Part shown: piece after piece, positions 2,507 through 19,761 of the stretch | Numbering within the stretch: the first letter of the stretch is position 1 | Layout: each line of letters begins with the position of its first letter | NCBI GenBank assembly: GCA_963815215.1 | Contig: CAWFFU010000003.1 | Span: forward strand, 128,001-192,000 | DNA: 64,000 bases | Source: an uncultured Trueperaceae bacterium | GTDB taxonomy: Bacteria; Deinococcota; Deinococci; Deinococcales; Trueperaceae | Direction of reading: 5' to 3' | Program-made: the position numbers and the translations under genes | The notes under the pieces: generated by a model | What the model was told of the DNA's origin: nothing | What the model saw: only the letters and a program-made list of their open reading frames with translations | The model's database searches: none

Positions 2507-3406
2507 GTGCGACGGGCCTGGCTGCTTGCTCTGTTGGTGATCCCCCTGCTGGTGACGGCATGTGCGCCGGGTACGGAGGCGGGCATCGCGGCGCCGACGT
2601 TCACCGTGCTGCAGAGCGGGACGGGCTTCCGATCCGTTGACCCCCCCGGCGTCGGGGCGGGCGCCGCCGTGTTCGACGTCCGCCTCCGAGCAACCAACCC
2701 CAATCCGATCGGCTTCACGGTGGCCAGCCTGGACGGGGACTTCTACCTCGGCGGTCACCCGGCGGCAACAACGACGTTCCGCCAAGGGATCGAGCTGCCG
2801 GCCCACGGCAGCAGTGACCTGACCCTCGAGATCCGGGTGCCGCTGGCGCAGGCGCCCGCTCTCCTCCAGACGCTGGCGGGCCTGCTCACCGGAGCCTCCA
2901 CGGACTACCGTGTCGACGCCACGGTGGGCGTTCGGGTGTTCGGCGCGGTGCAGCGCTTCCCGCGCGCCACGCTGGCGCAGGGGCGCGTGCGATGGTCGCC
3001 GGCCTGGGTCGCGCCGCGGATCCAGCTCGCCTCATCCGGCCCCTCCTTGCACGTCGAATCGCTCACCCGTGTCACCGTGCAGATCGCAGCCACCTTGTAC
3101 AACCCGGCGCCGCTGGGCTACGTGGTGCAGGCTCCGACGGTGCATCTGGCGCTCGCCGGCACCCCGGTCGCCACCGCGCAGCTCGGCCGGGTCGTGGCGC
3201 CCGCAGGCGCCACGGTGCCCGTCAACCTGACGTTCAGCTTCAACCCCCTGCAGGTCGGTCCGGCACTGGCGGCCCAGGTCTCGGCCGTCGCTTCGGGTGC
3301 CGGCAGCCTCGCCTTCGGCGTGTCGGGGCCCCTCGTGCTGGAGGCGCCGGGGCTCGCCACCCACAACGTCGACGCCGCGGCGTTGCTGAGCGGCACGCTG
3401 CGCTGA
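2507..3406 (+). CDS. Lipoprotein with tandem LEA_2/WHy-like domains
   Basis: Lipobox LVTA-C; two beta-rich repeats with NPN/YNP motifs (VRLRATNPNPIG, ATLYNPAPLG). Confidence 0.75.
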   Translation: MRRAWLLALLVIPLLVTACAPGTEAGIAAPTFTVLQSGTGFRSVDPPGVGAGAAVFDVRLRATNPNPIGFTVASLDGDFYLGGHPAATTTFRQGIELPAHGSSDLTLEIRVPLAQAPALLQTLAGLLTGASTDYRVDATVGVRVFGAVQRFPRATLAQGRVRWSPAWVAPRIQLASSGPSLHVESLTRVTVQIAATLYNPAPLGYVVQAPTVHLALAGTPVATAQLGRVVAPAGATVPVNLTFSFNPLQVGPALAAQVSAVASGAGSLAFGVSGPLVLEAPGLATHNVDAAALLSGTLR

Positions 3407-5708: not shown

Positions 5709-5736
5709 GCTGCCTGCCGGGGCCGCGCGGACCCGC

Positions 5737-6477
5737 TCATACCCCCACGAAGCGTTCGATGATGTCGCGGGCGTCGCTCTCGCGTGTAGCGGTCTCGCCG
5801 GACACCTGGCCGTCACGGAGGAACACGATGCGGTCGGCGTGCATGGCGGCGTTGGGGTCGTGGGTGACCATCACCACGGTCCAGCCGAAGGTGTCGACGC
5901 CGTGTCTAAGTAGCTCCAGTACCTCGGTGCCGGTGTGGGTGTCGAGATTGCCGGTGGGCTCGTCGGCCAGCACCACCACGGGGTCGTTGATGAGGGCGCG
6001 CGCCAGCGCCACACGCTGACGCTGCCCCCCCGAGAGCTGGCGGGGACGGTGGTTGAGCCGGTCGGCGATGGCCAGCTGGTCCGCCAGGTCGTGGAGCCGT
6101 TGGGCCGCCTGGGCACCGCGCCCTGCGATCTCGGCCGGCAGCAGGATGTTCTCGCGTGCCGTTAGGTTGGGGATCAGTTCGAAGCTCTGGAACAGGAAGC
6201 CTAGCTTGGTGCGTCGTAGCGCCGTCAGCGCGTCGTCGTCCAGATCCACGGTGGCCTGACCGACGACCTCCACGCTGCCGCGGTCCGGCACATCGAGCAG
6301 CCCCAGAAGGTGCAGCAGGGTGCTCTTGCCGCTTCCGCTGGGCCCCATCACCGCCAGGAACTCGCCCGCCCTGACCGCCAGGTCGATGCCCTTCAGAGCG
6401 TCGATGGTGAGGTCGCCGAGGCGGTAGCTCTTGCTCAGCTCGCGCGCGCGTAGGACTGGACTGTCGTTCGTTGCCAT
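5737..6477 (-). CDS. ABC transporter ATP-binding protein (LolD/MacB-like)
   Basis: GPSGSGKS, LSGGQRQR, LADEPTGNLD, VTHD. Confidence 0.95.
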   Translation of the reverse strand: MATNDSPVLRARELSKSYRLGDLTIDALKGIDLAVRAGEFLAVMGPSGSGKSTLLHLLGLLDVPDRGSVEVVGQATVDLDDDALTALRRTKLGFLFQSFELIPNLTARENILLPAEIAGRGAQAAQRLHDLADQLAIADRLNHRPRQLSGGQRQRVALARALINDPVVVLADEPTGNLDTHTGTEVLELLRHGVDTFGWTVVMVTHDPNAAMHADRIVFLRDGQVSGETATRESDARDIIERFVGV

Positions 6478-6479
6478 CG

Positions 6480-9047
6480 TTACTCCACGAATCCCAACGC
6501 TCGGGTGGGGGAGAGTTGAGCCGCACGTCGCGCCGGCAGGAGCGAAGCGAGCAGGCCCACCAGGGGGGATGCCACCAGGGCCAGACCCACCAGGGTCCAG
6601 TCGATCGCCGGCGTCAGCAGGAAGCCGGTCAGGGCGCTCGCGCCCGCGCTGATGACCCGCGCAAGGAGCAACCCGAAGGCCACGCCGAGCACGGCGCCCA
6701 CGAAAGTGACCACCATACCCTCGGAGGCGATGAGACGCCTCACGCCGCCGCGCGTCATCCCGACCGTGCGCAGCACAGCGATCTCATGGCTGCGGCTCAC
6801 GAGGTTCATGCCAAGCGTGTTGGCCACGCCCAGTGCGGCGACCAGCACGGCGATCAACAGCAGCATGTTGGTGGTCTGGAAGGACCGTTGGGTCAGCCGC
6901 AGGATGGCACTCCGGTAGTCGGCGTTGAGGGTGGCGTCCAGATGGAGCCCGGGGAAGGCCGACAACAGTTCCCGGCGCACCTGGTGTGGATCGGCGCCCG
7001 GCTTGTCGGCGATGACGAATAGATCGGGTGACCCGCCCCCGAACTCGGGCAGGTCGTGGATGCTGCCCACCACCGTCTCGCCGCCTCCGGTGAAGTCGAC
7101 CACCACGCCGGCCACCGGGAACTCCCGGAAGCCGTCGACCGTCCGCAGCCGGATGGTGTCGCCCTTCTTGATGCCGTACCTGTCGCGCATGGTGTTGGCC
7201 ACCAGGACCTGGCCACCCTTGGACAGAGCATGGAAGCCCTCGAGATTGTTCCCCTGGCCCTGGATGTACTGGAAGCGGCCGAAGCCGCCGTTGGGATCGA
7301 AACGCTGCGGGTCGACCAGGATCATGGCGATGGAGCGCCCGCGCCCACCTCCCTGCGGCTCGAAGCGGACCACCCGGATCCCCACACCGCTGGCCACTTT
7401 CACACCCGGAAGCTGCTGGGCCCGCTGCTCGAAGTCGTCGGGGAAGCTCACCGGCGAGGTCACGAAGACATCGCCCACGATGGTGGTGTCGACCCAGGAG
7501 GTGATGGCCCGGTTGATCCCGGCGACCATCGAGCCGACGCCGATGATCAGGCCGGTGCCCACTGCCACGGTCCCGATGGCTACCCCGTTGCGGGCGGCGT
7601 TGCGCAGGGCGAAGTTGCTTCCCAGACGGCCCGAGGTGCCGAAGAGGCGCACCAGAAGGGGAGTGAACAGCGCCAGCGCAGGGCGCAGCAGGCTGGGCGT
7701 GGCCATCGCGACGCCGACGAAGAACACGGCCATGGCGGTGCCGCTGGCGACGAGTGCCAGGTACCCCGACCACGGCAGCACACTCAGGACCACGCCCAGC
7801 GCCAGAAGGCTCCAACCGAGCACCGCCTGGCGCGGCGGGGCCGCTTCCTCCGCATTCCGACCGGCCGCGATGGGCGGTGTGCGCGAGGCGTTCCGGGCCG
7901 GAAGCACGCCGGCGGCGAGCGAGACCAGGACGCCGACGCCGGAGGCCAGGGCCACGCTCCGGACCGGGATCACCAAGGTGCGGAAATCGAACCCCAGGCT
8001 GACGGCGTTCATGCGGGTGATGACGTAGGCCAGCCCCACCCCGAGCAGCAGGCCCATCAGCACGCCCACCAGGCTCAGCGCCGCTGCTTCGTACAGCGCC
8101 AGTCGCTGAACGTCACCGCGCGTCATGCAGATGGTGCGCAGCAGGGCGTACTCGCGCGTCCGCTCCACGACCGAGGCCATGAACGTGTTGTAGGCCATGA
8201 AGCCGCCCAACGCTAGCAGCGTCACGGCCAGTACGGACAGTCCGGACTGCAAGGTATCGACGATGCCCGAGGCCACGTTGCCGGACACGGCGGGGTAGGT
8301 CACGGTCAGGTCCTGCGAAAGGGAGGGCAGGCGCGCTTCGATACGGGCCCGCACGTCCTCCACGGGAACCGACGGATCGACCAGGACCTCGATGTGCGAC
8401 GCCCGCCCCTGCATGTGCAGGATGACCCGCAAGTCCTGGATGGCGATGATTCCCACGCGTCCGCCGTTGGTGCTGGCGAGGCCGTAGCCGTCGTCGAGGA
8501 GCCCGGTCACGGTGAGTGGCACGTCGCCGAAGCTGGTCGCGAAGCGGACGGTGTCACCCACCGCGATGCCGCGCTCCTGGGCGAACCCCTGGGCGATGGC
8601 GACGCCGTCCGAGCCGGGTTGGGGCAGCGCGCCCTGGGCCAGCTTGGCCGGCAGGTCGGTCGGGACGGTGGTGACGCGGCCGCTGAGTTGGAAGCCGGTG
8701 TCGACGCCCGGGATGATCGACTTCTGGAAGTCCTGGATGGCGCGCACGGGTTCGGCGCGGGTGTTCAGAACGGGGTACGCGGCCTTCACTCCGGACATCT
8801 TGCGGACCAGGTCGAGAGCGGGACCGTCTTCGAACACGGCTCGCCCTCCCGCGCCCGGCGTCACCAGCAGGTCGGCCTTCCCCGAGGCCGCCTGCAGCGC
8901 ACCGCGCACGTTGGCCTCGACGTTGGCACCGACCGAGAGCGTGGTCAGCACCGCCGCGATGCCGATGCCCACGCCGAGGACGGTGGCAAGGCTGCGCCAG
9001 GGGTGCCGGAGCAGGTTCAGGAGGGCCAATCGACGCAGCGCGGTCAC
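6480..9047 (-). CDS. FtsX-like ABC permease (duplicated LolC/E or MacB-type, 855 aa)
   Basis: Two MacB_PCD+FtsX halves (VVERTREYALLRTICM; SRSHEIAVLRTVGM; LPARRAA). Confidence 0.9.
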   Translation of the reverse strand: MTALRRLALLNLLRHPWRSLATVLGVGIGIAAVLTTLSVGANVEANVRGALQAASGKADLLVTPGAGGRAVFEDGPALDLVRKMSGVKAAYPVLNTRAEPVRAIQDFQKSIIPGVDTGFQLSGRVTTVPTDLPAKLAQGALPQPGSDGVAIAQGFAQERGIAVGDTVRFATSFGDVPLTVTGLLDDGYGLASTNGGRVGIIAIQDLRVILHMQGRASHIEVLVDPSVPVEDVRARIEARLPSLSQDLTVTYPAVSGNVASGIVDTLQSGLSVLAVTLLALGGFMAYNTFMASVVERTREYALLRTICMTRGDVQRLALYEAAALSLVGVLMGLLLGVGLAYVITRMNAVSLGFDFRTLVIPVRSVALASGVGVLVSLAAGVLPARNASRTPPIAAGRNAEEAAPPRQAVLGWSLLALGVVLSVLPWSGYLALVASGTAMAVFFVGVAMATPSLLRPALALFTPLLVRLFGTSGRLGSNFALRNAARNGVAIGTVAVGTGLIIGVGSMVAGINRAITSWVDTTIVGDVFVTSPVSFPDDFEQRAQQLPGVKVASGVGIRVVRFEPQGGGRGRSIAMILVDPQRFDPNGGFGRFQYIQGQGNNLEGFHALSKGGQVLVANTMRDRYGIKKGDTIRLRTVDGFREFPVAGVVVDFTGGGETVVGSIHDLPEFGGGSPDLFVIADKPGADPHQVRRELLSAFPGLHLDATLNADYRSAILRLTQRSFQTTNMLLLIAVLVAALGVANTLGMNLVSRSHEIAVLRTVGMTRGGVRRLIASEGMVVTFVGAVLGVAFGLLLARVISAGASALTGFLLTPAIDWTLVGLALVASPLVGLLASLLPARRAAQLSPTRALGFVE

Positions 9048-9054
9048 GTCCTCC

Positions 9055-9137
9055 AGTGTACCGTCGCCGCGCCGCCTCCGCAGGCTCGGGGGACCGTCAC
9101 CCAGCCGAGGCGCTCCTCACGGCGCCGGCGGTAGAAT
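9055..9137. promoter_or_regulatory. Back-to-back -10 boxes for divergent, probably leaderless transcripts
   Basis: TACACT (minus, 9055-9060) lies 7 nt before GTG 9047; TAGAAT (plus, 9132-9137) lies 8 nt before ATG 9146. Confidence 0.6.
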
Positions 9138-9145
9138 CGGCCGAA

Positions 9146-10375
9146 ATGCGTATCGCTTACGTCACCGATGAGGCGTATCCCGGGTTCGGCGGGCAGGCCA
9201 CCGCCACGGAGGCGCACGTCCGGGCCCTGGCGGACCTCGGCCACGAGCTCCACGTGGTGGTCGGACGGCAGCGCGGTCAGACCGAGCCCCCTGCGGGCGT
9301 GCGGCTGTCGACCCTGCCGGTGTTCCCGTTGGGATCGCTGTCGCACATCGCGTTGCCCCGCAAGAGCGTGCTGGCCCCGGTACTGGACTGGGCCGACATC
9401 GTGCATATCAATCTTCCCGGTCCGTTGGCTGCGGCCACCATGCGTCTGGCCCGTAGACGCGGCCTCCCGGTGGTGATGGGGCTCCACATCCAGGAGCAGA
9501 ACACGTCGATGCACCTACTCGGGCCGCTGCGCCCGATCTTGGAGGGCATCCTGCATCGCTTCTACCGGAGGCTCTTCGGCGAGGCCGACTGTGTCACGGC
9601 TCCTACGGCGTTCGCCGGACGGCTCGCGGGGAGCTACGCGCCGCCCCGCATCGAAGTGGTGTCCAACGGCCTCGATCCGTTCACCGAAGGGCCCGGCTTC
9701 GACGAGGAGGTCGGTACCCTGCGACGCGAGTTGCTCGCAGGTGGCGACGACGTAGTGGTGTCGTACGTGGGCCGACTCTACCCCGAGAAGCATCCCGAAG
9801 AGCTCGTTGCGTTGCTGGCTGCCGCACGCGAGCGCGGGTCGAAGGCGGTGCTGGCGGTGGCGGGACGCGGGCCGATGAGCGAGCGCCTGGTCGAGCTGGC
9901 GCGCCGCGCCGGGGTCGCAGACCACGTGCGGCTCCTGGGCTTCGTCGAAGAACGTCGCAAACGTGCGTTACTTCGCGCCACGGATGTGTTCCTGATGCCC
10001 TCCGAGGTGGAACTCCAGAGCATCGCGACCATGGAGGCCATGAGCGCCGGATGCCCCATCCTCACCGCCGACTACCCTACGAGCGCCGTACCGGATCTGG
10101 TGAAGGAGTGTGGAGCCGGCGTCGCCTACCCGGCGGGGCGACCCGATCGAGGGGCGCAGCTGCTGGTGGAGATGCTGGCCGACGAGGGGGGGATGACGCG
10201 CTACCGGCGGGCGGCCCTCGAGTCGGCCGGCTCGTTCGAGCTACCGGCCATCGGGCGCCGTCTCGCGGCGATCTACGAGGAGCTCATCGCCGGTCACGGC
10301 ACGCCGGGCACGGCACGCCGCCCGCGGGATCGACGGTTCACCCGGGGCGAGGCGCCGCTGCCGGGACGCTCCTGA
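9146..10375 (+). CDS. Glycosyltransferase family 4
   Basis: MRIAYVTDEAYPGFGG N-terminus, YVGRLYPEK, MPSEVELQSIATMEAM (Ex7E motif). Confidence 0.9.
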   Translation: MRIAYVTDEAYPGFGGQATATEAHVRALADLGHELHVVVGRQRGQTEPPAGVRLSTLPVFPLGSLSHIALPRKSVLAPVLDWADIVHINLPGPLAAATMRLARRRGLPVVMGLHIQEQNTSMHLLGPLRPILEGILHRFYRRLFGEADCVTAPTAFAGRLAGSYAPPRIEVVSNGLDPFTEGPGFDEEVGTLRRELLAGGDDVVVSYVGRLYPEKHPEELVALLAAARERGSKAVLAVAGRGPMSERLVELARRAGVADHVRLLGFVEERRKRALLRATDVFLMPSEVELQSIATMEAMSAGCPILTADYPTSAVPDLVKECGAGVAYPAGRPDRGAQLLVEMLADEGGMTRYRRAALESAGSFELPAIGRRLAAIYEELIAGHGTPGTARRPRDRRFTRGEAPLPGRS

Positions 10376-10399
10376 CCGCGGCCCGGGGGCGATAGGCTC

Positions 10400-11389
10400 T
10401 CATCCCGTCTCCTGGGCGCGTCGCGTCACCAGGTAGCCACCGAGCAGCGGGCCGAGCAGGAAGATCGAGTAGAAGGTCACCAACCGCCACAGCAGCACCA
10501 CACCCGGGACCGACGTACCGCCCCCCCGAGCGATCAGCACGTAGGAGATGCCCAGCTCGAAGAAGCCGCTTCCTCCCGGCGTGGGGACGAAGGTCGACAT
10601 CACCACGACCACCATCTGGGCCGCTTCGATGACGGGGAGCGACACCATCACTCCCAGCCCCCGTGCGAGGAAGAACAGGATCGAGAAGAAGCTGATCCAG
10701 GAGGCGGCCGTGACGGCCTGCAGCGCGAGGTAGAAGCCGAGCGGCGCGTTCTTGAACAGCCGATTCGACTCCAACATCGTCTCTACGAACCGCAGCCCCT
10801 GCCTGCGCCAGCGGATCAGAGGGCCGCGCAGGATCCAGCGTGCGATCGGCTCCAGCCAGGCCAGGCGGAACTGCACCAGGTAGGCGACCGCCGCTGACAG
10901 AACCACGGTGAGCGCTCCCAACGCCAGCCAGGCGGCTCCCTGCGGGTACAGGCCGAGCGCGTAGAGCATCCCCAGCGCGATGGGCAGGCCCCAGGTGTGG
11001 AACAGCGCGTCGGCGCCGAACACGGCCACGCCCACCGCCCACGCGACCCCCGGTGGCAGCTTCTGGCCCTGCAGGGCCAGAGCCAGGGCGGGCGTCGAGC
11101 CGCTGCCGCCGGGCGTCACGGTGGCGCTGAACATGCCGAGGATGTGGGCGCGAAGGGCGTGGAACAGCGGCAGCCGGTAACCGAGCCGCCGGCACATGTA
11201 GATGAGGCGCACGGCGGCCATGGTGAACGCGCCCAGCAGACCTCCGAGGGCCGCCAGCGCGTACGTCCACGGGAGCTGCCGGATGATGGTCAGGTCCTGC
11301 ACCTTGCCGACGCGGAAGACGACCCAGGCGAGCCCCAACGCGCTGAGCACCATCGACACGATGAGCGAGCGCAGGACGGTCCTGTTCAA
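10400..11389 (-). CDS. Lysylphosphatidylglycerol synthase TM / UPF0104 flippase-like membrane protein
   Basis: Multi-TM; VTPGGSG, FVPTPGGSGFFE and LLWRLVTFY motifs; TTG start overlaps upstream TGA, preceded by GGAGG. Confidence 0.85.
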   Translation of the reverse strand: MNRTVLRSLIVSMVLSALGLAWVVFRVGKVQDLTIIRQLPWTYALAALGGLLGAFTMAAVRLIYMCRRLGYRLPLFHALRAHILGMFSATVTPGGSGSTPALALALQGQKLPPGVAWAVGVAVFGADALFHTWGLPIALGMLYALGLYPQGAAWLALGALTVVLSAAVAYLVQFRLAWLEPIARWILRGPLIRWRRQGLRFVETMLESNRLFKNAPLGFYLALQAVTAASWISFFSILFFLARGLGVMVSLPVIEAAQMVVVVMSTFVPTPGGSGFFELGISYVLIARGGGTSVPGVVLLWRLVTFYSIFLLGPLLGGYLVTRRAQETG

Positions 11390-12561
11390 GGAGCCTCCGT
11401 CAAGTCCGCCAGGTGCGCAGCGATGGCGAGCGTCCCGGGCCGGAACCCCAAGGCTGCGACGCGCTCCTGCCAGGTGCGAAGCGGCGCACGGTCCTCGCAC
11501 AGGGGCGCGAGCAGCGCCACGACGTCGCGCGGCCGGGGCACATAGCCGCCGATGCCGTGCTGCGTGCAGTAGTCGAGGTTGCGCTTCTCGTTCGGAGCCA
11601 CGTAGCTGGTGTGGAAGATAGGCCGTCCCAGGGCCAACGCCTCGAAGGTGGAGGCCGCGCCCGCTTTGCCGATCACCAGATCACTGGCTGCGATCCACTC
11701 GGGCATGTTGGTGGCGAAGCCCACGACCTGCAGGCGGGTCCGCCCGCCGGCCGCGGCGTGGGCGTCGGCCAGTTGCTGCAGGCGCGCTCGGAGCTGCTCG
11801 TTGCGGCCCGTCACGACCACGTACTGCAGGTCGAGATCGGCCGCGAGCACGGCGCCGGCGATGCCCTCGACGTTGCCTCCGATGCCCTCGCCTCCCGGCG
11901 TGTGGAGCACGGTGAGACGGCCGGCGTCGAGGCCGAGGCTACGGCGCGCGGCCGCGAGGGTGGGGACCTCGTCCACGAACGCCAGGCCGAGCGGGTAGCC
12001 GAAGATCCGCAGGCGCTCCGCGGGCACGCCCTTGGCGTTCAGCAGCGCGCGCGCTTCATCGCTGGCCACCACGATCTCGTCGACGTCCCGGACCGCCCAC
12101 AGGGCGTGGCCGTCGAACGGATCGGTATCGATGCCCACCAGCGTGGCATCGAACTCACCCCGACGCCGGGCCATGGCGGCCGCGAGGAGCGGCATGAAGT
12201 GCACGCCCACCACCAGATCGTAGCCCTGAGCGCGAACGAAGGCGGCCAGCCTCCGGCTGAAGCCCTTCAGCATCCATGCCTGGACCGCCTGCGTCCAGGT
12301 CACCGGGATCACGCGGTCGAGAAGGTTCTGGAGCACGAAGGTGACGCGCGGATGGGCGAGCATCCACTTCCAGCTCTGCTTGTGGCGACGATCCAACGCT
12401 TGCTCGCCGAGATGGTGCATGATGTCGAGCACGTCGATGTCGAAGCGGTCCGGCCAGCTCCGTTGGAGGGCCGCCTGCAGAGCCATGGCCGGGGCGCGGT
12501 GTCCGCCGCCGGCTTCGATCATGGCGATGAGGATGTGCGGGCGCCCGCCGCCGGGGGTCAT
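11386..12561 (-). CDS. MGDG synthase / UgtP-like glycolipid glycosyltransferase (GT28)
   Basis: EAGGGHRAPA, GGEGIG, VTGRN, KAGAASTFEA, NEKRN motifs. Confidence 0.88.
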   Translation of the reverse strand: MTPGGGRPHILIAMIEAGGGHRAPAMALQAALQRSWPDRFDIDVLDIMHHLGEQALDRRHKQSWKWMLAHPRVTFVLQNLLDRVIPVTWTQAVQAWMLKGFSRRLAAFVRAQGYDLVVGVHFMPLLAAAMARRRGEFDATLVGIDTDPFDGHALWAVRDVDEIVVASDEARALLNAKGVPAERLRIFGYPLGLAFVDEVPTLAAARRSLGLDAGRLTVLHTPGGEGIGGNVEGIAGAVLAADLDLQYVVVTGRNEQLRARLQQLADAHAAAGGRTRLQVVGFATNMPEWIAASDLVIGKAGAASTFEALALGRPIFHTSYVAPNEKRNLDYCTQHGIGGYVPRPRDVVALLAPLCEDRAPLRTWQERVAALGFRPGTLAIAAHLADLTEAP

Positions 12562-12586
12562 GGCGTCGTCTCCGGTTTCTTGCCCG

Positions 12587-13687
12587 TCACACGTCCGGCA
12601 GCGTCTCGAAGGTCTTGAGCGCCTGAGCGACCACCTGGTCCATGTTGTAGTAGCGGTACGTGCCGAGGCGGCCGGCGAAGGTGACATGCTCGAGCTCGGC
12701 GGCCATGGCGCGGTACGCCTCGTAGAGCGCCCGGTTCTCGGGTCTGGGAACCGGATAGTAGGGGTCGCCTTCGGCCCGCGGGTGCTCGTACACGAGCACC
12801 GACTTGGCGTGACGCTGGCCTGTCAGGTGCTTCATCTCGGTGCGCCGCGTGTACGCGTAGTCGTTCGGGTAGTTGGTGGTGCCGGTCTCCTGCACCTGCT
12901 CCTGGTCGTGGGTGACGAACTCGAACTCCAACGAGCGGTAGGGCAGGGGACCGAGCTCGTGTTGGAAGTAGCCGTCGATGGGTCCGGTGTAGATCAGGTG
13001 CTTGTGAGGGACGAGGTCGGCCACCTCGCGGTAATCGGTATTGAGCATGACCTTGATGTTGGGGTGCCGCAGCATGCGGCGGAACATCGCCGTGTAGCCG
13101 TGCAGCGGCATGGCCTGGTAGGTGTCCGTGAAGTAGCGATCGTCGCGATTGGTGCGTACCGGCACCCGGGCGGTCACGGAGGCGTCGAGCTCCTTGGGCT
13201 CGAGTCCCCACTGCTTCTTGGTGTAACCGCGGAAGAACTTCTCGAACAGCTCCTGGCCGACCCGGGCCACCACCACGTCCTCGGACGTCACGATGCGCTC
13301 GCGCTTGATCGCCCGGGCCGCGAAGAACGCCTCCACCTCGGGAGCCGACAGGTCGAGGTTGTACAGCGTGTTGATGGTGTCGAGGTTGATGGGGATGGGC
13401 ACCAGCTGGCCGTCGACCAGGGCTCGCACGCGGTGCTGATAGGGGCGCCAGGCGGTGAAGCCGGACAGGTAATCGAAGACGCTCTTGGCGTTGGTATGGA
13501 AGATGTGCGGCCCGTAGCGGTGGACCAGCACGCCGTCGTCGTCGTGCTCGTCGTAGGCGTTGCCCGCGATGTGATCGCGGCGGTCCACCACCAGCACGCG
13601 GCCGCCACGCTGGGTGGCGATCCGTTCGGCGAGGACGGCTCCCGAGAAGCCAGCGCCCACGATGAGGAAGTCGAATCCCTCGCTCAT
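12587..13687 (-). CDS. glf: UDP-galactopyranose mutase
   Basis: IVGAGFSG FAD motif, HIAGNAYD, YGPHIFHT, GYTKKQWG, PYYP, GRLGTYRYYNMDQ. Confidence 0.96.
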   Translation of the reverse strand: MSEGFDFLIVGAGFSGAVLAERIATQRGGRVLVVDRRDHIAGNAYDEHDDDGVLVHRYGPHIFHTNAKSVFDYLSGFTAWRPYQHRVRALVDGQLVPIPINLDTINTLYNLDLSAPEVEAFFAARAIKRERIVTSEDVVVARVGQELFEKFFRGYTKKQWGLEPKELDASVTARVPVRTNRDDRYFTDTYQAMPLHGYTAMFRRMLRHPNIKVMLNTDYREVADLVPHKHLIYTGPIDGYFQHELGPLPYRSLEFEFVTHDQEQVQETGTTNYPNDYAYTRRTEMKHLTGQRHAKSVLVYEHPRAEGDPYYPVPRPENRALYEAYRAMAAELEHVTFAGRLGTYRYYNMDQVVAQALKTFETLPDV

Positions 13688-13695
13688 GTCGCGCC

Positions 13696-13704
13696 ACCAT
13701 ACCA
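13696..13704 (-). promoter_or_regulatory. Extended -10 (TGgTATGGT) 8 nt upstream of glf ATG
   Basis: Sequence match only; no SD between box and ATG. Confidence 0.45.
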
Positions 13705-13741
13705 TCGCTGCCGACGCGTCCGCGGGGTGTGGTGGGGGCAG

Positions 13742-14728
13742 CTAGGTGGGGGTCAACGCGCCGACCGAGCGTCGCAACCCCTCGCGCCAGGACACCACCG
13801 GACGGTAGCCGAGCTCCTCCACCGCATGCCGGATGCTGAAGTGCACGTCCCGCGTCATCAGGCCGGCACGGTAGCGGGTCATGGGGGGCTCGTTGCGGGG
13901 GAAGAGGGCGCCCCAGGTCGCCTCGACACCACGCGCCAGAGCCTTGGTGGGGGTGCCCGGGAGGCGCAGCCGCGGCGGTCGCTCGCCCAACAGCCGCGCC
14001 AGTTCGGAGAGCAACTCGCGCCAGCTCGGCATGCCGTCGTCGGCGATGACGTAGGTCCGGTGGGCGGCCTCGGGCCGTTCCAACGCAAGCCGTACCCCGA
14101 GCGCGAAGTTCTCGGCATAGGCGGTGTTGATGACGCTGTCGCCGCTTCCCACCATCGGCAGCAGGCCCTGCTCGAGGGCGCGCACGACGCGGCGGAGGTT
14201 CGGGTCGCGGGAGCCGAACGGCCACAGCCCGGGACGCACGATCACACCTTCGATCCCACCGACCCCGCGGACCAGGTCCTCGGCCATGATCTTGGAGTGC
14301 GCATACGGCTCGCGGACGTTGTCGCGAGGGACCTCGCGCGGGTCAGCGTCGCGGAAGCCGCTGTAGCGATGGACGGCGACGCTCGAGATGAGCACGAATC
14401 GGCTCACGCCGACGTGTACGGCTTCCTTCAGGAGCTGCTCCGTGCCCACCACGTTGGTCCGGTAGAAGGCGTCCCACGGTCCCCAGTCGGCAACGCGCGC
14501 CGCCGCGTGCACCACGGCATCGATGCCGTCGCAGGTGCCGACGAGGGCGCCCTCTCGACTGAGGTCGGCGCGCTCGATCTGCAGGCTCCGCTCGTCGAGC
14601 ACGGCGCCAAGGTTGGCGATCGTCCCCCAGGGCGACACCAGGGCGCGCACCTGATGGCCGGCGGCCAGCAGGTGTTCGCTGATGTGGCTCCCTAGGAAGC
14701 CATGGGCACCGGTAACCAGAACGTTCAT
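13742..14728 (-). CDS. Extended SDR NAD(P)-dependent epimerase/dehydratase; candidate ceramide (3-keto) reductase
   Basis: TGAHGFLG, HAAA, ISSVAV, YAHSK catalytic motif; reductase role inferred from context only. Confidence 0.8.
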   Translation of the reverse strand: MNVLVTGAHGFLGSHISEHLLAAGHQVRALVSPWGTIANLGAVLDERSLQIERADLSREGALVGTCDGIDAVVHAAARVADWGPWDAFYRTNVVGTEQLLKEAVHVGVSRFVLISSVAVHRYSGFRDADPREVPRDNVREPYAHSKIMAEDLVRGVGGIEGVIVRPGLWPFGSRDPNLRRVVRALEQGLLPMVGSGDSVINTAYAENFALGVRLALERPEAAHRTYVIADDGMPSWRELLSELARLLGERPPRLRLPGTPTKALARGVEATWGALFPRNEPPMTRYRAGLMTRDVHFSIRHAVEELGYRPVVSWREGLRRSVGALTPT

Positions 14729-14803
14729 GTCAGCCGCCGCAGCCCAAGCCTACCAGGAAGGGGGTCCGGGCGGTCCTTCCGGGCGCGTCGGCCGGCCACG
14801 ACG

Positions 14804-15538
14804 TCAACCGTGGAACAGCAGGCCCTGGTGGTAGAGAACGAACACATCGGTGGACAGGCCGATGACCAGGTGGATGATGGTGGAGTACAGCACCGACCGG
14901 CTTCGCAGCGCCAGCACACCGAACAGCAGACTGGCGGGCAGGGCGGCCAGCAGTTCGGTCATGGGCTTGCCGAGATGGATGAGCGTGGCCGCCAGCGACT
15001 GCACCCAGATGGCTTGCGGCGCGCCCCAGGCGTCAGCGACGATGCGCTGCAGGAAGCCGCGGTAGAAGAACTCGAAGGCCACGTAGTACAGGCCGTAGAT
15101 CACGGCCCACAGCCCGATGTTGGCGAGGCTTCGACCTACCCACGCGCCAGCCCACGGGTAGGTCGCCTCGAGCCCTTTGTCGAAGCTGCCCAGGTACATC
15201 AGCGGGATGACGATCACGGCGCCGCCGAGCGCCGCCGAGAGGCCGAAGCGCACGTCGCCCAGGCGGAGCCCCACGTGCTTGAGGTCGATCCCCACCACAG
15301 CCAGCAGCAACGCGGGCAGCGCCAGCAGGAACACCAGCGACCACGCCACCGTGGTGACCCCCGTCAGCAGGGTGCGCGGTTGGAACTGCATCAGCGCAGG
15401 CCCGGGACTGGCGACGTACCAGAAGCCGGCCTGCAGGAGCACGGCGGCCGTCAGCAGGAACCACAGCCGCGCGTGCTTCCGGTCGAAGAGCTGCGCCAGG
15501 TCGGCGAACACCACACCGACCGAACGCAGCGGGTTCAC
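14804..15538 (-). CDS. CPBP (CAAX/Abi) family intramembrane protease-like protein
   Basis: Multi-TM; FEFFYRG, HLGKPMTE, IIH motifs; GTG 15538 overlaps upstream TGA. Confidence 0.78.
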   Translation of the reverse strand: MNPLRSVGVVFADLAQLFDRKHARLWFLLTAAVLLQAGFWYVASPGPALMQFQPRTLLTGVTTVAWSLVFLLALPALLLAVVGIDLKHVGLRLGDVRFGLSAALGGAVIVIPLMYLGSFDKGLEATYPWAGAWVGRSLANIGLWAVIYGLYYVAFEFFYRGFLQRIVADAWGAPQAIWVQSLAATLIHLGKPMTELLAALPASLLFGVLALRSRSVLYSTIIHLVIGLSTDVFVLYHQGLLFHG

Positions 15539-16644
15539 AGCGCCTTCTGGTACATGCGGTAGGTCTTGTAGAGCTCGGCGCCCGCCGCCTCGATCCCGCG
15601 GTTCATGGCGTCGTTGTCCTCCAGCACCCAGCTGCACTCGCCGCCGGTGTAGCCGATGGCGCGACCGCGCCTGGCCGTCTCGGCGATCATCAGCAGCTCG
15701 AAGCCCTTGTGGCGGTATTCGGGCAGCACCCCGAGGATGGCCAAGCGCCCCTGAGTGATGATCTTCTTGCGGTTGAGCAGGTGGAAGATCCCGAAGGGGA
15801 TGAGCCGGCCGTTGAACTTGGCGAGGACCTGGTTGAGGTCGGGGATGGTGATCGACAGCCCGACGGTCTCGCCCTTGTACTCCAGGAACAGCGCCAGCTC
15901 GGGCTCCATGATCATCTTGAGGTCGTTGGCCAGATAGTCGAACTCGGCGTCGGTGCCGCGCACCTGCCCCCAGTTCTCCTCCCACGCCACGGTGTAGAGG
16001 TGCTTGAGCAGGCCGACCTCGCGCTTGAACTGCTTCATGTCGGCGGGTCGCACGGTGACGTCGTAGCGTTTGCGGATGCGGTCGGCCATCCGCTCCAAGT
16101 GCTCGGTGGCGCCGTGGCGGATGTCGATCTTCCAGGCGTAGAGGTCCTTGACCTTCTGGTAGCCGGCGGCCTCCGCGAAGCCCAGGTAGTCCGCCGGATT
16201 CTGCAGCATCATGATGAACGGTCTGGTTTCGAAGGCGTCGATCTGGAAGCCCGCGCCGTCGTCCATGGTGGGGTTCGCGGGACCGCGGACGGTGTCCCTA
16301 CCGAGGGCCCGCGCCTCGGCCTCGACGGCCCCGTAGAGTGCCGAGGCGACCTCGGCGTCCTCGGCCTCGAAGAAGCCGAAGAACACCAGGTTGTCGCCGA
16401 ACTGTTCGTTGTGGGCGTCATTGTCGATACAGGCGACGCGACCGACGATGCGTCCGTCGCGTTCGGCTAGGTAGGGGGTGATCCGACCGTGCTGGAAGAA
16501 GGGGTTCTTCTTCGGATTCAGTTTGTCGAACTCCCCCATGCGGAGCGGAGGGACGAAGGTCGGATCACCCCGGTACTTGTCGTAGACATAATCAATGAAG
16601 CGACCCAGGTCGCGTTTCGTCGCGACCTTCTTGATCTCGACCAT
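15535..16644 (-). CDS. YghO-like GNAT acyltransferase; candidate bacterial ceramide synthase (bCerS)
   Basis: FVPPL..NPFFQHG, GRVA, FGFFE, RGPANP, GVLPEYRHKG, ECSWVLEDN..MN, YKTYRMY; directly downstream of spt. Confidence 0.75.
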   Translation of the reverse strand: MVEIKKVATKRDLGRFIDYVYDKYRGDPTFVPPLRMGEFDKLNPKKNPFFQHGRITPYLAERDGRIVGRVACIDNDAHNEQFGDNLVFFGFFEAEDAEVASALYGAVEAEARALGRDTVRGPANPTMDDGAGFQIDAFETRPFIMMLQNPADYLGFAEAAGYQKVKDLYAWKIDIRHGATEHLERMADRIRKRYDVTVRPADMKQFKREVGLLKHLYTVAWEENWGQVRGTDAEFDYLANDLKMIMEPELALFLEYKGETVGLSITIPDLNQVLAKFNGRLIPFGIFHLLNRKKIITQGRLAILGVLPEYRHKGFELLMIAETARRGRAIGYTGGECSWVLEDNDAMNRGIEAAGAELYKTYRMYQKAL

Positions 16645-16668
16645 GGCTGATCACCCCTTTTTCGGCTG

Positions 16669-17925
16669 TCAGATTACACCAAGCCCCTTGCCCACCGTCT
16701 CGAATGCGGTGAGCAGGAGGTCGAGCTCCTCGGCGCTGTGGTTCGCATTGACGCTGGTGCGGATGATCGAGTGCCCGGGAGCGACGCCGGGCGGGAGCGC
16801 GGGGGTGGTGAACACGCCCGCGTCCCACAGCCCCTTCCAGAAGGCCAGCGCACGGTCGTCCTCACCCACCAGCACGGGCACGATCGGCGTCTCGGAGCCG
16901 AGCGTGTCGAACCCCAGGCGCTGCATGCCGGTGCGGAAACGCTTGACGTTCTTCCACAGTTGCACGCGGTGCTCGGGCTCGGTCTCCATGATGTCGAGCG
17001 CGGCCAGTGCGGCTGCCATCTGCATGGCGGGCAGCGCGGCGGTGAAGATGAACGGGCGCGCGTGGTGCTTGACGAACTGCACCACCTTGCGGTCGCCGGC
17101 CATGAAGCCGCCCACGCTGGCGAACGACTTCGAGAAGGTTCCGATGATGACGTCGACCTCGTCCTCGAGACCGAAATGCTCGCCGGTGCCGCGGCCGCTG
17201 TCGCCCAGAACGCCGCTGGCGTGGGCGTCGTCGATCAGCAGACGCGCGCCGTAGCGGCGCTTCACATCGACCAGGCCCGGCAGGTCCACGATGTGACCGC
17301 TCATGGAGAAGACGCCGTCGGACACGATGATGCGCCCGCCCGGCTTGTCCGCGTCCGCGGCGAGCAGGCGCTCGAGGTGCTCGAGGTCGTTGTGGTCGTA
17401 CTTCCGCAACGTCGCGTACGAGAGCCGCGCGGCGTCGTACAGCGACGCGTGGTTCTCACGGTCGTAGTACAGGATGTCGTGCCGCCCTGCGAGGGCGCTC
17501 ACCACCGACAGGCAGCCCAGGTAGCCGGCGCTGAAGGTGAGGGCTGCCTCCTTGTTGAGGAAGCTCGCGAGGCGTTGCTCGAGCGTCTCATGGAGCGTCA
17601 GGGTGCCGGTCAGGAAACGCGAGCCGGTGCAGCTCGTGCCGAAGTCGTCGAGGGCGTCGCGGGCGGCGCTCTTGAGCCGTTCGTCCTGCGTGAGGCCCAG
17701 GTAGTCGTTCGAACCGGTGATCACCATCTCCCGGCCGTTGGCGCGGACGGTGCCGCCATGCTGGGCGGCGATGGGCTTGAAGTAGGGGTGCAGGCCCGCC
17801 GATTCGGCCAGTTCGGCTCGATTGAACGCGAAGGCCTTGGTGAAGGCGTCTCGAGCACGCGCCGAGCGCTGCGCGGCGTCGTCCTCGATGACCGGGTTCT
17901 GGCGGGTGTCAACGACCTCAGACAA
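16669..17925 (-). CDS. spt: PLP-dependent alpha-oxoamine synthase; probable serine palmitoyltransferase
   Basis: GLHPYF N-terminal motif, GSNDYLGL, GTSCTGSRFLTG, NHAS, DDAH, GTFSKSFASVGG PLP-lysine motif; TTG 17925 follows GGAGG. Confidence 0.8.
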   Translation of the reverse strand: MSEVVDTRQNPVIEDDAAQRSARARDAFTKAFAFNRAELAESAGLHPYFKPIAAQHGGTVRANGREMVITGSNDYLGLTQDERLKSAARDALDDFGTSCTGSRFLTGTLTLHETLEQRLASFLNKEAALTFSAGYLGCLSVVSALAGRHDILYYDRENHASLYDAARLSYATLRKYDHNDLEHLERLLAADADKPGGRIIVSDGVFSMSGHIVDLPGLVDVKRRYGARLLIDDAHASGVLGDSGRGTGEHFGLEDEVDVIIGTFSKSFASVGGFMAGDRKVVQFVKHHARPFIFTAALPAMQMAAALAALDIMETEPEHRVQLWKNVKRFRTGMQRLGFDTLGSETPIVPVLVGEDDRALAFWKGLWDAGVFTTPALPPGVAPGHSIIRTSVNANHSAEELDLLLTAFETVGKGLGVI

Positions 17926-17960
17926 GACTTCCTCCAACGCGGCTACAAGCCAATTAGGGC

Positions 17961-17969
17961 ACTATAGCA
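17961..17969 (-). promoter_or_regulatory. Extended -10 (TGcTATAGT) for spt operon
   Basis: Near-consensus match in an AT-richer intergenic patch upstream of spt. Confidence 0.55.
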
Positions 17970-18243
17970 CGCACCCGTCGGAGTCCAGCACGGGCGCGGC
18001 GGGTCGTCACACCCTACGCAAATGGACTCGAATGCGCAAGCGAGATCCGCGTCATGGCCCCGGCTCGGGCCTCGAGCGGGGGACGCCCAGAGGGCTCCCG
18101 GGTCCGGGGCCCGGGCGGATCGGCCCGCGCCCCGGCTGTGTGGGCTTGTGACCCAGTCGTCTGCGCGCGTCACGACGGGCGCGTTATACTTGCGCCGTGG
18201 CCGTCACAACCTACGTGCCGTGCATGCTTGGAGTGCCGGAAGG

Positions 18244-18780
18244 ATGAGCGCATTGAATCTGACGTCGCCCGGTGCCCTGACGCGTCCCGCCGATGCCTCG
18301 GACGCCACCTTGGTCCACCGCCTCTACGAGAAGACCCCTGGCTATTTCGACGTGATCTCCATCCCTGTCCCGACCCTGGCCGAGGTCAGGACGGACCTCG
18401 AAACCGCGGTCCGGGACGCCCGCAGGCACACCGAGCTGGTGCTCCTGCCGCCCGCTGAGCGGGCGCCGCGCGACGCGGAGCTGACGGACCCGGTGAGCGG
18501 TCGTCAGGTCGTCGGCTACCTCGATTACAAGGTCGACTACCCGGACACCGGGGACGCCACCGTCAACCTGCTCCTCATCGAGGGCGATCTGCAAGGACGC
18601 GGCATCGGCGGCCACTGCGTGCGGGATCTCGAGGGGCGCCTTCGCGGCCGCGTGCGCCGCGTGCTCGCCAGCATCTACGGGCAGAACCCACGTGCCCGCC
18701 GCTTCTGGGAGAGGCTGGGGTACGCCTTCGCGATCGATGCGAAGCCCGTGCTCGACTGGTACGCCAAGCAGCTCGTCTGA
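18244..18780 (+). CDS. GNAT family N-acetyltransferase
   Basis: LLLIEGDLQGRGIG motif A, NPRARRFWERLGY motif B; upstream TATACT and GGAAGG. Confidence 0.85.
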   Translation: MSALNLTSPGALTRPADASDATLVHRLYEKTPGYFDVISIPVPTLAEVRTDLETAVRDARRHTELVLLPPAERAPRDAELTDPVSGRQVVGYLDYKVDYPDTGDATVNLLLIEGDLQGRGIGGHCVRDLEGRLRGRVRRVLASIYGQNPRARRFWERLGYAFAIDAKPVLDWYAKQLV

Positions 18781-18858
18781 CCCCTGTCCGGTCGCGCCGG
18801 ACCGCCCTCGAGGCCGGCCGGGCATGCCGTGCGAGGGGAGCGGTGTATCCTTTCCGTC

Positions 18859-19761
18859 ATGAAGCATGTCGTGAGTGTCTCGCTCGGTTCCGCCACGCGT
18901 GACACCGACCAGACCGTGACCATCCTCGGGGAGCAGGTCCACCTTGAGCGGCGGGGGACGCAGGGAGATTTCGACGCCGCCCGCGCTCTCATCGGCGAGC
19001 TCGACGGCCGGGTCGACGCCATCGGGCTCGGCGGCATCGACCTGTTCTTGCCGGTGGGCGCCAGGCGCTACTACTTCCGCGACGCCCGCAGCCTCGCTGC
19101 GGCGGCCACGCGGACGCCCGTGGTGTGCGGCGCCGGGCTGAAGAACAGCCTGGAGCGGGCGATGGTAAGGGCGCTCGCCGGCCGGTTGTCATGGCAGGGT
19201 CGGAAGGTGTTGATGGTCTCGGCGCTCGACCGCTTCGGTATGGCCGAGGAGCTGGTGGCGCACGGTGCCCATGTGCTGTTCGGCGACTTCATCTTCTCGC
19301 TGGGGTTGCCCATCCCCCTGTACCGCCTGGGCACGCTGCACGCCCTGGCCACGGTTCTGTTGCCGGTGTTCGTCAGGTTGCCGTTCAAGTGGCTCTACCC
19401 GGTGGGCGCGAGCCAGGAGACCGAGGCGACCACCGAGCGTTTCGAACGCTACTATCGCTGGGCCGACGTGGTGGCCGGCGATTGGCACTACATCCGGCGT
19501 TACGCGCCCGCCGACCTTCATGGCAAGACGGTGCTCACCAACACCACCACCGAGGCGGACGTGGCCTTCCTGAAGGCGCGCGGCGTGCGCACGTTGATCA
19601 CCACCACGCCGCGCTTCGACGGCCGCAGCGTGGGAACGAACCTGTTGGAGGCCGCGTTCGTCGCCATCGACGGGGGCACGGGCGAGCTCTCCGCCGAACG
19701 CTACCGTGCGATGATCGAGGCCGCGGAGCTCGAGCCGTCCGTGCTCGAGCTCGCGTCCTGA
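18859..19761 (+). CDS. Conserved uncharacterised protein (family often auto-annotated quinate 5-dehydrogenase)
   Basis: MKHVVSVSLGS, AIGLGGID, GAGLKNSLER, LYP, GDWHYI, TPRFDGRSVGTN recognised from memory; function unknown. Confidence 0.6.
   Translation: MKHVVSVSLGSATRDTDQTVTILGEQVHLERRGTQGDFDAARALIGELDGRVDAIGLGGIDLFLPVGARRYYFRDARSLAAAATRTPVVCGAGLKNSLERAMVRALAGRLSWQGRKVLMVSALDRFGMAEELVAHGAHVLFGDFIFSLGLPIPLYRLGTLHALATVLLPVFVRLPFKWLYPVGASQETEATTERFERYYRWADVVAGDWHYIRRYAPADLHGKTVLTNTTTEADVAFLKARGVRTLITTTPRFDGRSVGTNLLEAAFVAIDGGTGELSAERYRAMIEAAELEPSVLELAS

Follow-up and report, generated by a model that had tools for sequence, protein, structure and literature searches.

A seven-gene cluster in a Trueperaceae-like genome as a candidate operon for a glycosylated ceramide-type lipid

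Organization of the locus

We examined a 64,000-nt stretch of DNA (here called the window; ~70% G+C), which belongs to contig C3 of a genome of 3.3 Mb that is 97% complete. Within it lies a run of seven tightly packed minus-strand genes at 17937-10400, encoding in order an alpha-oxoamine synthase (AOS), a GNAT-type protein, a CPBP-family membrane protein, an extended short-chain dehydrogenase/reductase (SDR), a UDP-galactopyranose mutase, a GT28 glycosyltransferase and a flippase-like membrane protein. The intergenic gaps are 24 nt (between the AOS and GNAT genes), 75, 36 and 25 nt, and the two remaining junctions are start/stop overlaps. Because of this packing and the conserved gene order described below, we regard the seven genes as most likely forming a single operon.

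An earlier reading of the letters alone (the sequence-only reading) had placed a putative ceramide-synthesis cluster of four co-oriented genes (AOS, GNAT, CPBP and extended SDR) at 13742..17925 of an apparent Deinococcota genome. All four genes are present on the minus strand, and the host assignment is borne out: among the 80 best related loci from other named public genomes, which make up our synteny set, the nearest named ones come from Trueperaceae or Deinococcales metagenome-assembled genomes (MAGs; GNAT identity 74-98%), pointing to a Trueperaceae-like family. The extent is right for the four core genes but its lower boundary is too tight, since the mutase, GT28 and flippase-like genes continue past the SDR gene on the same strand, with 36 nt before the mutase gene, 25 nt before the GT28 gene and a start/stop overlap before the flippase-like gene. 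The claim that no bio or tdh genes lie nearby holds for all 52 window open reading frames (ORFs) scanned, and the claim that the operon has no acyl carrier protein (ACP) gene stands because the gaps between genes leave no space for one. Among the sequencing runs listed, the window sequence occurs in 20 DNA-type runs and 0 RNA runs.

The alpha-oxoamine synthase

The first gene (16669-17937, minus strand) encodes a pyridoxal phosphate (PLP)-dependent, Spt-like AOS (Pfam Aminotran_1_2, 194.9 bits). Its start had been put at 17925, where an in-frame TTG does follow a Shine-Dalgarno-like GGAGGA; a further in-frame TTG lies upstream at 17937, and both are start candidates. The three motifs that had drawn attention to the gene are found in the translation, GLHPYF at 48-53, GSRFLTG at 105-111 and GTFSKSFASVGG at 266-277.

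Database scores, a tree and active-site positions agree with the original suggestion that serine palmitoyltransferase (SPT), above all that of Bacteroidota, is nearer to this enzyme than BioF or Kbl is. Among NCBIfam models, SerpalmtaseCFB (NF047600, Bacteroidota-type SPT) scores highest at 424 bits, against 381 for bioF and 348 for Kbl. The best PDB match is the SPT of Sphingobacterium multivorum (3A2B/8GUH; 349.5 bits); other scores were 288 bits for Thermus BioF/KBL, ~258-270 for Sphingomonas SPTs, 262 for a cysteate acyltransferase, 235 for E. coli KBL and 199 for E. coli BioF. The genome has one other AOS, 36% identical to the first, which is Kbl according to NCBIfam (671 bits vs a cut-off of 460) and adjoins a zinc alcohol-dehydrogenase-family (tdh-like) gene, as in kbl-tdh pairs.

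The phylogeny suggested with the sequence-only reading was run as an IQ-TREE quick search of 82 rows with SH-aLRT support, without HemA-type references, and it groups the AOS with SPT-labelled rows and leaves BioF and Kbl outside. Nine of the 90 extracted rows were left out (L001-L006 and L092, which come from the window genome or close kin of it, and L053 and L075, which are truncated), and the window AOS was then put back under its own name. Reference rows were labelled by curated NCBIfam cut-offs. The Prevotella AOS passes SerpalmtaseCFB, those of Roseomonas and E. coli PN43 pass SerpalmtaseBetaP, as does the complete one (L055; 506 vs 500 bits) of the two Acidobacteriota AOS scanned, and E. 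coli Kbl, E. coli BioF and the sister-family paralogues pass the Kbl, BioF or BioF/Kbl models. The window AOS shares a 61-row clade (SH-aLRT 99) with rows from Trueperaceae, Rubrobacteraceae, Acidobacteriota (two rows) and a further family of the same order (f5). This clade is nested in a 72-row clade (SH-aLRT 95) that holds all of the SPT-labelled rows (Prevotella, Roseomonas and E. coli), and the BioF, Kbl and BioF/Kbl rows lie outside the latter (SH-aLRT 98).

Active-site residues of the S. multivorum SPT, taken from the available part of PMC10196870, were mapped through the alignment of the PDB match and a 19-row alignment. The fold-type I set (PLP lysine plus catalytic His/Asp/His) is present, with AOS K270, H163, D236, H239, T267 and S269 equivalent to SPT K244, H138, D210, H213, T241 and S243. 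The SPT residues kept in the AOS are Asn52, Tyr54, Gly80, Ser81, Phe83, His138, Ser185, Asp210, Ala212, His213, Thr241, Ser243, Lys244 and Ala274. Over the 22 active-site positions, the AOS follows SPT and differs from Kbl/BioF at TGSR 104-107, A238, S269 and A300. Positions 105-106 are G,S and position 300 is A, as in the SPT-labelled rows, where Kbl has S,V and N; BioF and BioF/Kbl rows have T at position 300. Thr104 replaces Ala79 of the Bacteroidota SPT and is the same Thr found in proteobacterial SPTs. Position 106 is Ser like SPT Ser81, where the cysteate enzyme has Ala82. By these sequence comparisons the AOS groups with the SPT clade and not with BioF/Kbl, and its predicted reaction is the condensation of an amino acid, most likely serine.

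The GNAT-type N-acyltransferase

The second gene (15535-16644, minus strand) encodes a 369-aa YghO/bCerS-type tandem-GNAT N-acyltransferase, a candidate ceramide synthase. Standard models barely see it: Pfam Acetyltransf_1 scored 19.8 bits, under the 20.7 cut-off, and NCBIfam and PDB sequence searches gave no useful match. Its AlphaFold model (pLDDT 86.5) has tandem GNATs as top Foldseek matches, with E down to 2.5e-14. The label 'YghO-like' that it had been given is correct, because the protein aligns with E. coli K-12 YghO along the full length at 31% identity (E 5e-61). It is also 37% identical (E 8e-72) to the GNAT at the cerS position on a Roseomonas mucosa plasmid. Plasmid-collection records of Sphingomonas, Bacteroides, Phocaeicola and Prevotella hold further relatives, and more distant ones (26-28% identity) are found in Ensifer, Rhizobium and Shinella. 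The family is very large and well conserved: scoring of 8000 candidates gave at least 3779 proteins at E ≤1e-5, none with a name more specific than 'GNAT superfamily'.

Placement with YghO/bCerS was upheld by homology to genes in sphingolipid loci of Roseomonas and E. coli. The Roseomonas GNAT gene follows two lptF/lptG-family genes, and the same locus has a PLP aminotransferase-family gene (SPT by NCBIfam), an ACP gene, a fatty acyl-AMP ligase gene beside an SDR gene, a diacylglycerol-kinase-family gene and CDP-alcohol transferases. In E. coli PN43, yghO lies beside a ligase-epimerase-ACP-AOS-lptG-lptF series; E. coli K-12 has IS5 at the spot where PN43 has its spt genes, and there yghO abuts IS5. 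As judged from gene content, both loci share the layout reported for Caulobacter CC_1152-CC_1168, where, according to the accessible portion of PMC11324152, aasR, cerR, acpR and spt are found and cerS (CC_1154) adjoins lptF2/lptG2. An Spt-like AOS together with a YghO/bCerS-type GNAT is the pair already known from bacterial ceramide synthesis. An excerpt of PMC11334938 describes this pair as widespread, in 9 phyla earlier and in 40 after a Black Sea survey.

The CPBP and SDR genes

The third gene (14804-15538, minus strand) encodes a CPBP (Rce1-like) polytopic membrane protein (Pfam Rce1-like, 40.8 bits vs a cut-off of 22.4), and the gene starts at a GTG that overlaps the stop codon of the GNAT gene (GTGA). 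Its E156, R160, H188 and H223 are invariant in 17 sequences, with a single Glu in the Glu/Arg motif; the EExxxR motif of CPBP intramembrane proteases has two. The fourth gene (13742-14728, minus strand) encodes an extended SDR of a YbjS/OleD/HpnA-like branch (Pfam Epimerase, 98.3 bits), a candidate 3-keto reductase. G7, G10 and G13 (GxxGxxG), S115, Y142 and K146 (YxxxK) are invariant in 17 sequences. The NCBIfam models OleD (154 bits) and HpnA (131 bits) each score under their own cut-offs, and such sub-threshold matches are common to all of the SDRs compared, of window and CerR types.

The SDR had been called CerR-like. It is 28% identical to the CerR-like SDR of Roseomonas, and when that protein is searched against the genome the window SDR ranks first (E 4.4e-8). 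We do not consider it a CerR orthologue, because the reciprocal best-match test fails in reverse, the best E. coli match being YbjS and the CerR-like gene second. The Rubrobacter operon SDR passes this test: in E. coli the CerR-like gene is its top match, and the identity of this SDR to the Roseomonas CerR-like protein is 37-39%.

An SDR gene comes shortly after the GNAT gene in 70 of the 80 related loci. The window-type SDR is found in 35 loci, all 35 with a CPBP gene, and the CerR-type SDR in the other 35, of which at least four are Trueperaceae-labelled and none (0/35) has a CPBP gene; the loci in both sets are kin rather than independent samples. In many related loci the CPBP stop overlaps the SDR start. 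(L016 and L024, with an in-frame stop in their ORF calls, were left out of alignments A2 and A3.) The CPBP and SDR genes together thus occupy the slot where other lineages have a CerR-type SDR, and from this distribution we take them to be a cassette of two genes by which one Trueperaceae lineage replaced CerR. Complex prediction for the two proteins from two alignments gave no answer (score 0.00), which is evidence neither way on binding.

Head-group genes

The next gene (12587-13705, minus strand) encodes a UDP-galactopyranose mutase, which makes UDP-galactofuranose; it passes the curated equivalog model TIGR00031 (386.6 bits vs 303.75) and matches Pfam GLF (255.7 bits). The mutase points to galactofuranose as the sugar, probably limited to this genus. 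It is followed by a GT28 gene (11386-12561, minus strand, ATG start at 12561) of the MGDG-synthase/UgtP type, a candidate lipid glycosyltransferase, with Pfam MGDG_synth at 36.7 bits (cut-off 25) and Glyco_tran_28_C at 35.7 (cut-off 22). In the PDB it matches plant MGD1 (E 1e-28), and it is also homologous to processive diacylglycerol glucosyltransferase. The genome has a second, better-scoring MGDG_synth copy elsewhere, and so the operon GT28, the weaker and divergent of the two, fits a dedicated acceptor. The last gene (10400-11389, minus strand) encodes a flippase-like membrane protein of the LPG_synthase_TM family (Pfam, 92.3 bits vs 33.4; TIGR00374, 81.3 bits vs a cut-off of 43.2), and its TTG start, preceded by GGAGG, overlaps the GT28 stop codon.

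Given the mutase, GT28 and flippase-like genes in the operon, the predicted product is a glycolipid rather than a bare ceramide. The sequence-only reading that the organism makes ceramides is thereby kept for its core, the enzyme pair, and given up for the bare ceramide, with production of the lipid inferred.

The genome also has an LpxC match (G000:C3:909867-910613; 212 bits, above the Pfam cut-off); there was no match for LpxC in the control genomes of Deinococcus radiodurans and Thermus thermophilus. The Trueperaceae-like genome may therefore make lipid A, unlike these two controls. Because of this match, we rejected the idea that a glycosphingolipid replaces lipopolysaccharide here.

Conservation and distribution

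Gene order was scored in the synteny set by tblastn with the window proteins (E ≤1e-8), with the loci that have room for the gene in question as denominators. The AOS gene immediately precedes the GNAT gene in 57 of 72 loci (16/16 unlabelled, 25/28 Deinococcota-labelled, 13/14 Actinomycetota-labelled, 2/13 Acidobacteriota-labelled and 1/1 Ignavibacteriales), and the SDR gene is downstream in 57 of 63 (13/13, 22/27, 11/11, 11/11 and 0/1 for the same groups in the same order). With these two counts, the AOS-GNAT-SDR arrangement is beyond chance. Nine further Acidobacteriota-labelled loci have the AOS gene elsewhere in the locus; the pattern in this group is a GNAT-SDR pair near an AOS. The later genes are more restricted: GT28 is downstream of GNAT in 32 of 58 loci (11/13, 16/25, 5/9, 0/10 and 0/1), the flippase-like gene in 28 of 58 (7/13, 16/25, 5/9, 0/10 and 0/1), and the mutase in only 3 of 58 (2/13, 1/25, 0/9, 0/10 and 0/1). 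A locus from a MAG labelled as the species Truepera radiovictrix (L065) has the order AOS-GNAT-CPBP-SDR.

Within the order, 120 further genomes were searched for the AOS, counting identities of 57% or more as high. Of the 26 genomes of the window's own family (f1), 22 gave a high-identity AOS, as did all 19 of family f5 (one partial); families f2-f4 gave 0 in 75 genomes, where the search found only 34-43% identical paralogues of the BioF/Kbl type. The GNAT was likewise found in 23 of 24 f1 genomes and all 4 f5 genomes searched, against 0 of 12 in the sister families f2-f4. The Spt-like AOS and YghO-type GNAT genes are unlinked in f5; in one f5 genome (G052), AOS is at C1:1243138-1244331 and GNAT at C1:336387-337475. 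This separation of ~0.9 Mb means that linkage is not universal in the order.

Between Trueperaceae and Rubrobacteraceae, identities are 66-72% for AOS and 52-58% for GNAT; between Trueperaceae and f5, they are 57-61% and 39-41%. That the Trueperaceae proteins are nearer to those of Rubrobacteraceae than to those of f5 suggests exchange of the two genes between phyla, in a tree that leaves the branching order of the groups unresolved.

Proposed pathway

From the observed gene content, packing, homologies, fold, synteny and distribution, we infer the chemical steps, substrates, sugar and step order of a possible pathway. The Spt-like AOS would join a long-chain acyl-CoA to an amino acid, L-serine being the most likely one, to give a 3-keto long-chain base; the operon, as in the Bacteroidota type, has no gene for ACP or acyl-ACP synthetase. 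The YghO/bCerS-type tandem GNAT would then N-acylate the 3-keto base, and the cytoplasmic YbjS/OleD-like extended SDR, encoded with the CPBP protein and replacing CerR, would reduce the 3-keto group. GT28 would transfer a hexose, in this genus probably galactofuranose from the product of the operon's UDP-galactopyranose mutase, and the flippase-like protein would move the glycolipid across the inner membrane.

Weight of evidence and alternatives

We consider it fairly probable that the seven genes at 17937-10400 are an operon whose end product is a glycosylated membrane lipid of ceramide type (an N-acyl long-chain amino-alcohol). Several points weigh against this interpretation. The AOS scores under all three curated SPT cut-offs (NCBIfam NF047600, NF047599 and NF047603; 424 vs 640, 377 vs 500 and 294 vs 670 bits), and its tree was a quick search with long branches and without ALAS, CqsA or cysteate-acyltransferase rows. 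According to the available part of PMC13692747, first-shell residue swaps did not turn a cysteate enzyme to serine use. The GNAT and the SDR are compared with the characterized Caulobacter proteins (CC_1154 and CC_1164) through locus position and intermediate homologues. When the window SDR was searched against E. coli H240, a genome carrying the spt-cerR-yghO locus and used for the reverse best-match test, ybjS (5.4e-20) came before the CerR-like gene (1.6e-13). The acceptor of GT28 could be diacylglycerol, and roughly half the related loci that could hold GT28 and flippase-like genes lack them. Finally, a promoter and terminator consensus scan of 8800-19000 found one promoter-like and two terminator-like sites, no more than in shuffled sequences.

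One alternative keeps the same enzymes and logic and changes the amino acid, so that Gly or Ala would lead to a 1-deoxy(methyl)-ceramide analogue, or cysteate to a sulfonolipid-type base. Such a lipid would resemble ceramide without being a true sphingolipid built from serine. This alternative is encouraged by the separation of the AOS clade from the three curated SPT models, under whose cut-offs it falls, and by three reports: SPT itself accepts alanine and glycine (PMC10196870), 1-deoxyceramides occur in bacteria (PMC11334938), and amino-acid specificity is not readable from first-shell residues (PMC13692747). We nevertheless judge this alternative unlikely, since the AOS signature positions match sequences that pass the SPT cut-offs, the Ser at position 106 agrees with SPT rather than with the cysteate enzyme, the PDB score for cysteate acyltransferase (262 bits) is under that for SPT (349.5 bits), and GT28 needs a hydroxyl acceptor, which serine supplies at C1. 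A different product altogether, an unusual amine- or diol-based lipid, had been floated in the sequence-only reading. In this case the cluster might feed lipids typical of the Deinococcus-Thermus group, either long-chain 1,2-diol glycolipids or the alkylamine of N-glyceroyl-alkylamine phosphoglycolipids. T. radiovictrix has indeed given peaks consistent with iso-C18 and iso-C15 1,2-diols (PMC3072082), and genes for the alkylamine phosphoglycolipids are not known according to the accessible text of PMC9636437, with our literature search finding no biosynthesis paper. Yet an AOS with an N-acyltransferase gives an amide-linked amino-ketone, neither a diol nor a plain alkylamine, and the same block occurs in Rubrobacteraceae and Acidobacteriota. 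Families f2-f4, with the GNAT in 0/12 genomes and high-identity AOS in 0/75, tell against it too; if, as we infer, they include Deinococcus, Thermus and Meiothermus, the lipids of these genera need no such cluster. We therefore hold the diol or alkylamine route to be quite improbable.

The bioF model, at 381 bits, is not far under its cut-off of 426, which could hint at a housekeeping BioF or Kbl with unrelated neighbors. This we find scarcely credible: a distinct Kbl, next to a tdh-like gene, is encoded elsewhere in the genome, the AOS lies outside the BioF, Kbl and BioF/Kbl tree groups and differs from them at the signature positions, and its linkage to GNAT and SDR genes is conserved across phyla.

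Within the favored interpretation of a glycosylated ceramide-type product, a bolder scenario can be drawn from the gene comparisons. A Trueperaceae lineage may have rebuilt the ceramide pathway, with the translationally coupled CPBP and SDR pair in place of CerR and with a galactofuranose donor, GT28 and flippase added, to yield a galactofuranosyl-(dihydro)ceramide of the envelope, its core genes having been exchanged with Rubrobacteraceae. Lipids of this class are not known to have been described for Deinococcota. We offer this as tentative, and doubtful when all of its parts are taken together. Rubrobacteraceae are as desiccation- and radiation-tolerant as Trueperaceae.

Comparison with known systems

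The ceramide pathway of Caulobacter crescentus comprises Spt (CC_1162), CerS/bCerS (CC_1154), CerR (CC_1164), AcpR and AasR, in the available portions of PMC11324152 and PMC11087976. An AOS, a GNAT-type N-acyltransferase and an NAD-dependent extended SDR are common to it and the window, whose order AOS-GNAT-reductase fits the proposed succession (condense, acylate, reduce), and whose GNAT is homologous to cerS-position genes in Roseomonas, Diaphorobacter and E. coli loci of Caulobacter-like layout. Unlike Caulobacter, the window operon has no ACP or acyl-ACP synthetase gene, its reductase is not a CerR orthologue and is paired with a CPBP gene, and in place of lptF2/lptG2, ceramide-kinase and CDP-alcohol transferase genes it has those for the mutase, GT28 and flippase-like protein.

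The S. multivorum SPT is a stand-alone soluble enzyme without an ACP partner gene, as is the window AOS, although the latter stands apart from Bacteroidota SPT in its own clade with Rubrobacteraceae, Acidobacteriota and f5. At the E. coli yghO locus, where YghO is homologous to the window GNAT, AOS and SDR genes are linked as well; unlike the window, the proteobacterial yghO layout is ACP-dependent, its E. coli AOS passes the SerpalmtaseBetaP cut-off, and the window SDR is nearer to E. coli YbjS than to the SDR of the yghO locus.

The Rubrobacteraceae operons (for example in R. radiotolerans RSPS-4 plasmid 1 and R. taiwanensis) have the order AOS-GNAT-SDR as in the window, with GT28 and flippase-like genes following in five of the nine loci with room. 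They differ in having a CerR-type SDR, no CPBP gene and no mutase gene. The Rubrobacter core genes are annotated just as (PLP) aminotransferase, hypothetical protein and oxidoreductase. In the 191-kb R. radiotolerans plasmid (L089), the AOS-GNAT-SDR operon lies at 14230-17597 of the record and adjoins an LTA-synthase-family gene and a type I-D CRISPR-Cas locus.

What appears to set the operon apart as a variant is the CPBP plus YbjS/OleD-like cassette in place of CerR, the missing ACP and acyl-ACP synthetase genes, and the attached mutase, GT28 and flippase-like genes. The main text of PMC11334938, in the part available, does not mention Deinococcota, and our literature search found nothing linking Deinococcus or Truepera to sphingolipid synthesis, the search on Rubrobacter being inadequate. 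In T. radiovictrix the polar lipids are undefined (PMC3072082). Confirmation of the lipid would bring the Deinococcus-Thermus group within the range of ceramide-type lipids, seemingly confined there to Trueperaceae and one further family of the order; T. radiovictrix and Rubrobacter species are cultured relatives whose glycolipids are poorly defined. The CPBP and SDR cassette would be a natural alternative to CerR, whose periplasmic location and source of reducing power are an open problem of the published pathway in an excerpt of PMC11087976. Our interpretation would also improve the annotation of the core genes over several phyla.

Neighboring genes

Convergent with the operon lies a plus-strand GT4 glycosyltransferase gene (9056-10375; Pfam Glycos_transf_1 96.9 bits, Glyco_transf_4 77.7 bits). 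A GT4 relative is on the opposite strand in some Trueperaceae loci, and the enzyme may add a second sugar, with its membership in the operon uncertain. Beyond it, on the minus strand, are genes for a MacB/LolCE-like duplicated FtsX permease (6480-9047; Pfam FtsX and MacB_PCD, two stretches each) and an ABC ATPase (5737-6477; Pfam ABC_tran). Because many Trueperaceae-type loci likewise have an FtsX permease gene after the cluster in the same orientation, the permease and ATPase may export the lipid, though their membership too is uncertain. An MMPL-family transporter gene (3468-5816, minus strand) follows beyond the ATPase and permease.

Divergent from the operon on the other side are plus-strand genes for a small GNAT (18022-18780; Acetyltransf_1) and for a 310-aa protein without a Pfam or NCBIfam match (18829-19761). 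The two are kept at the same position in many Trueperaceae-type loci (48-98% identity) and are not conserved in the Rubrobacteraceae or Acidobacteriota loci. A gene near the operon (2507-3406, plus strand) encodes a protein of the LEA_2 (late embryogenesis abundant) type, a family frequently tied to desiccation tolerance.

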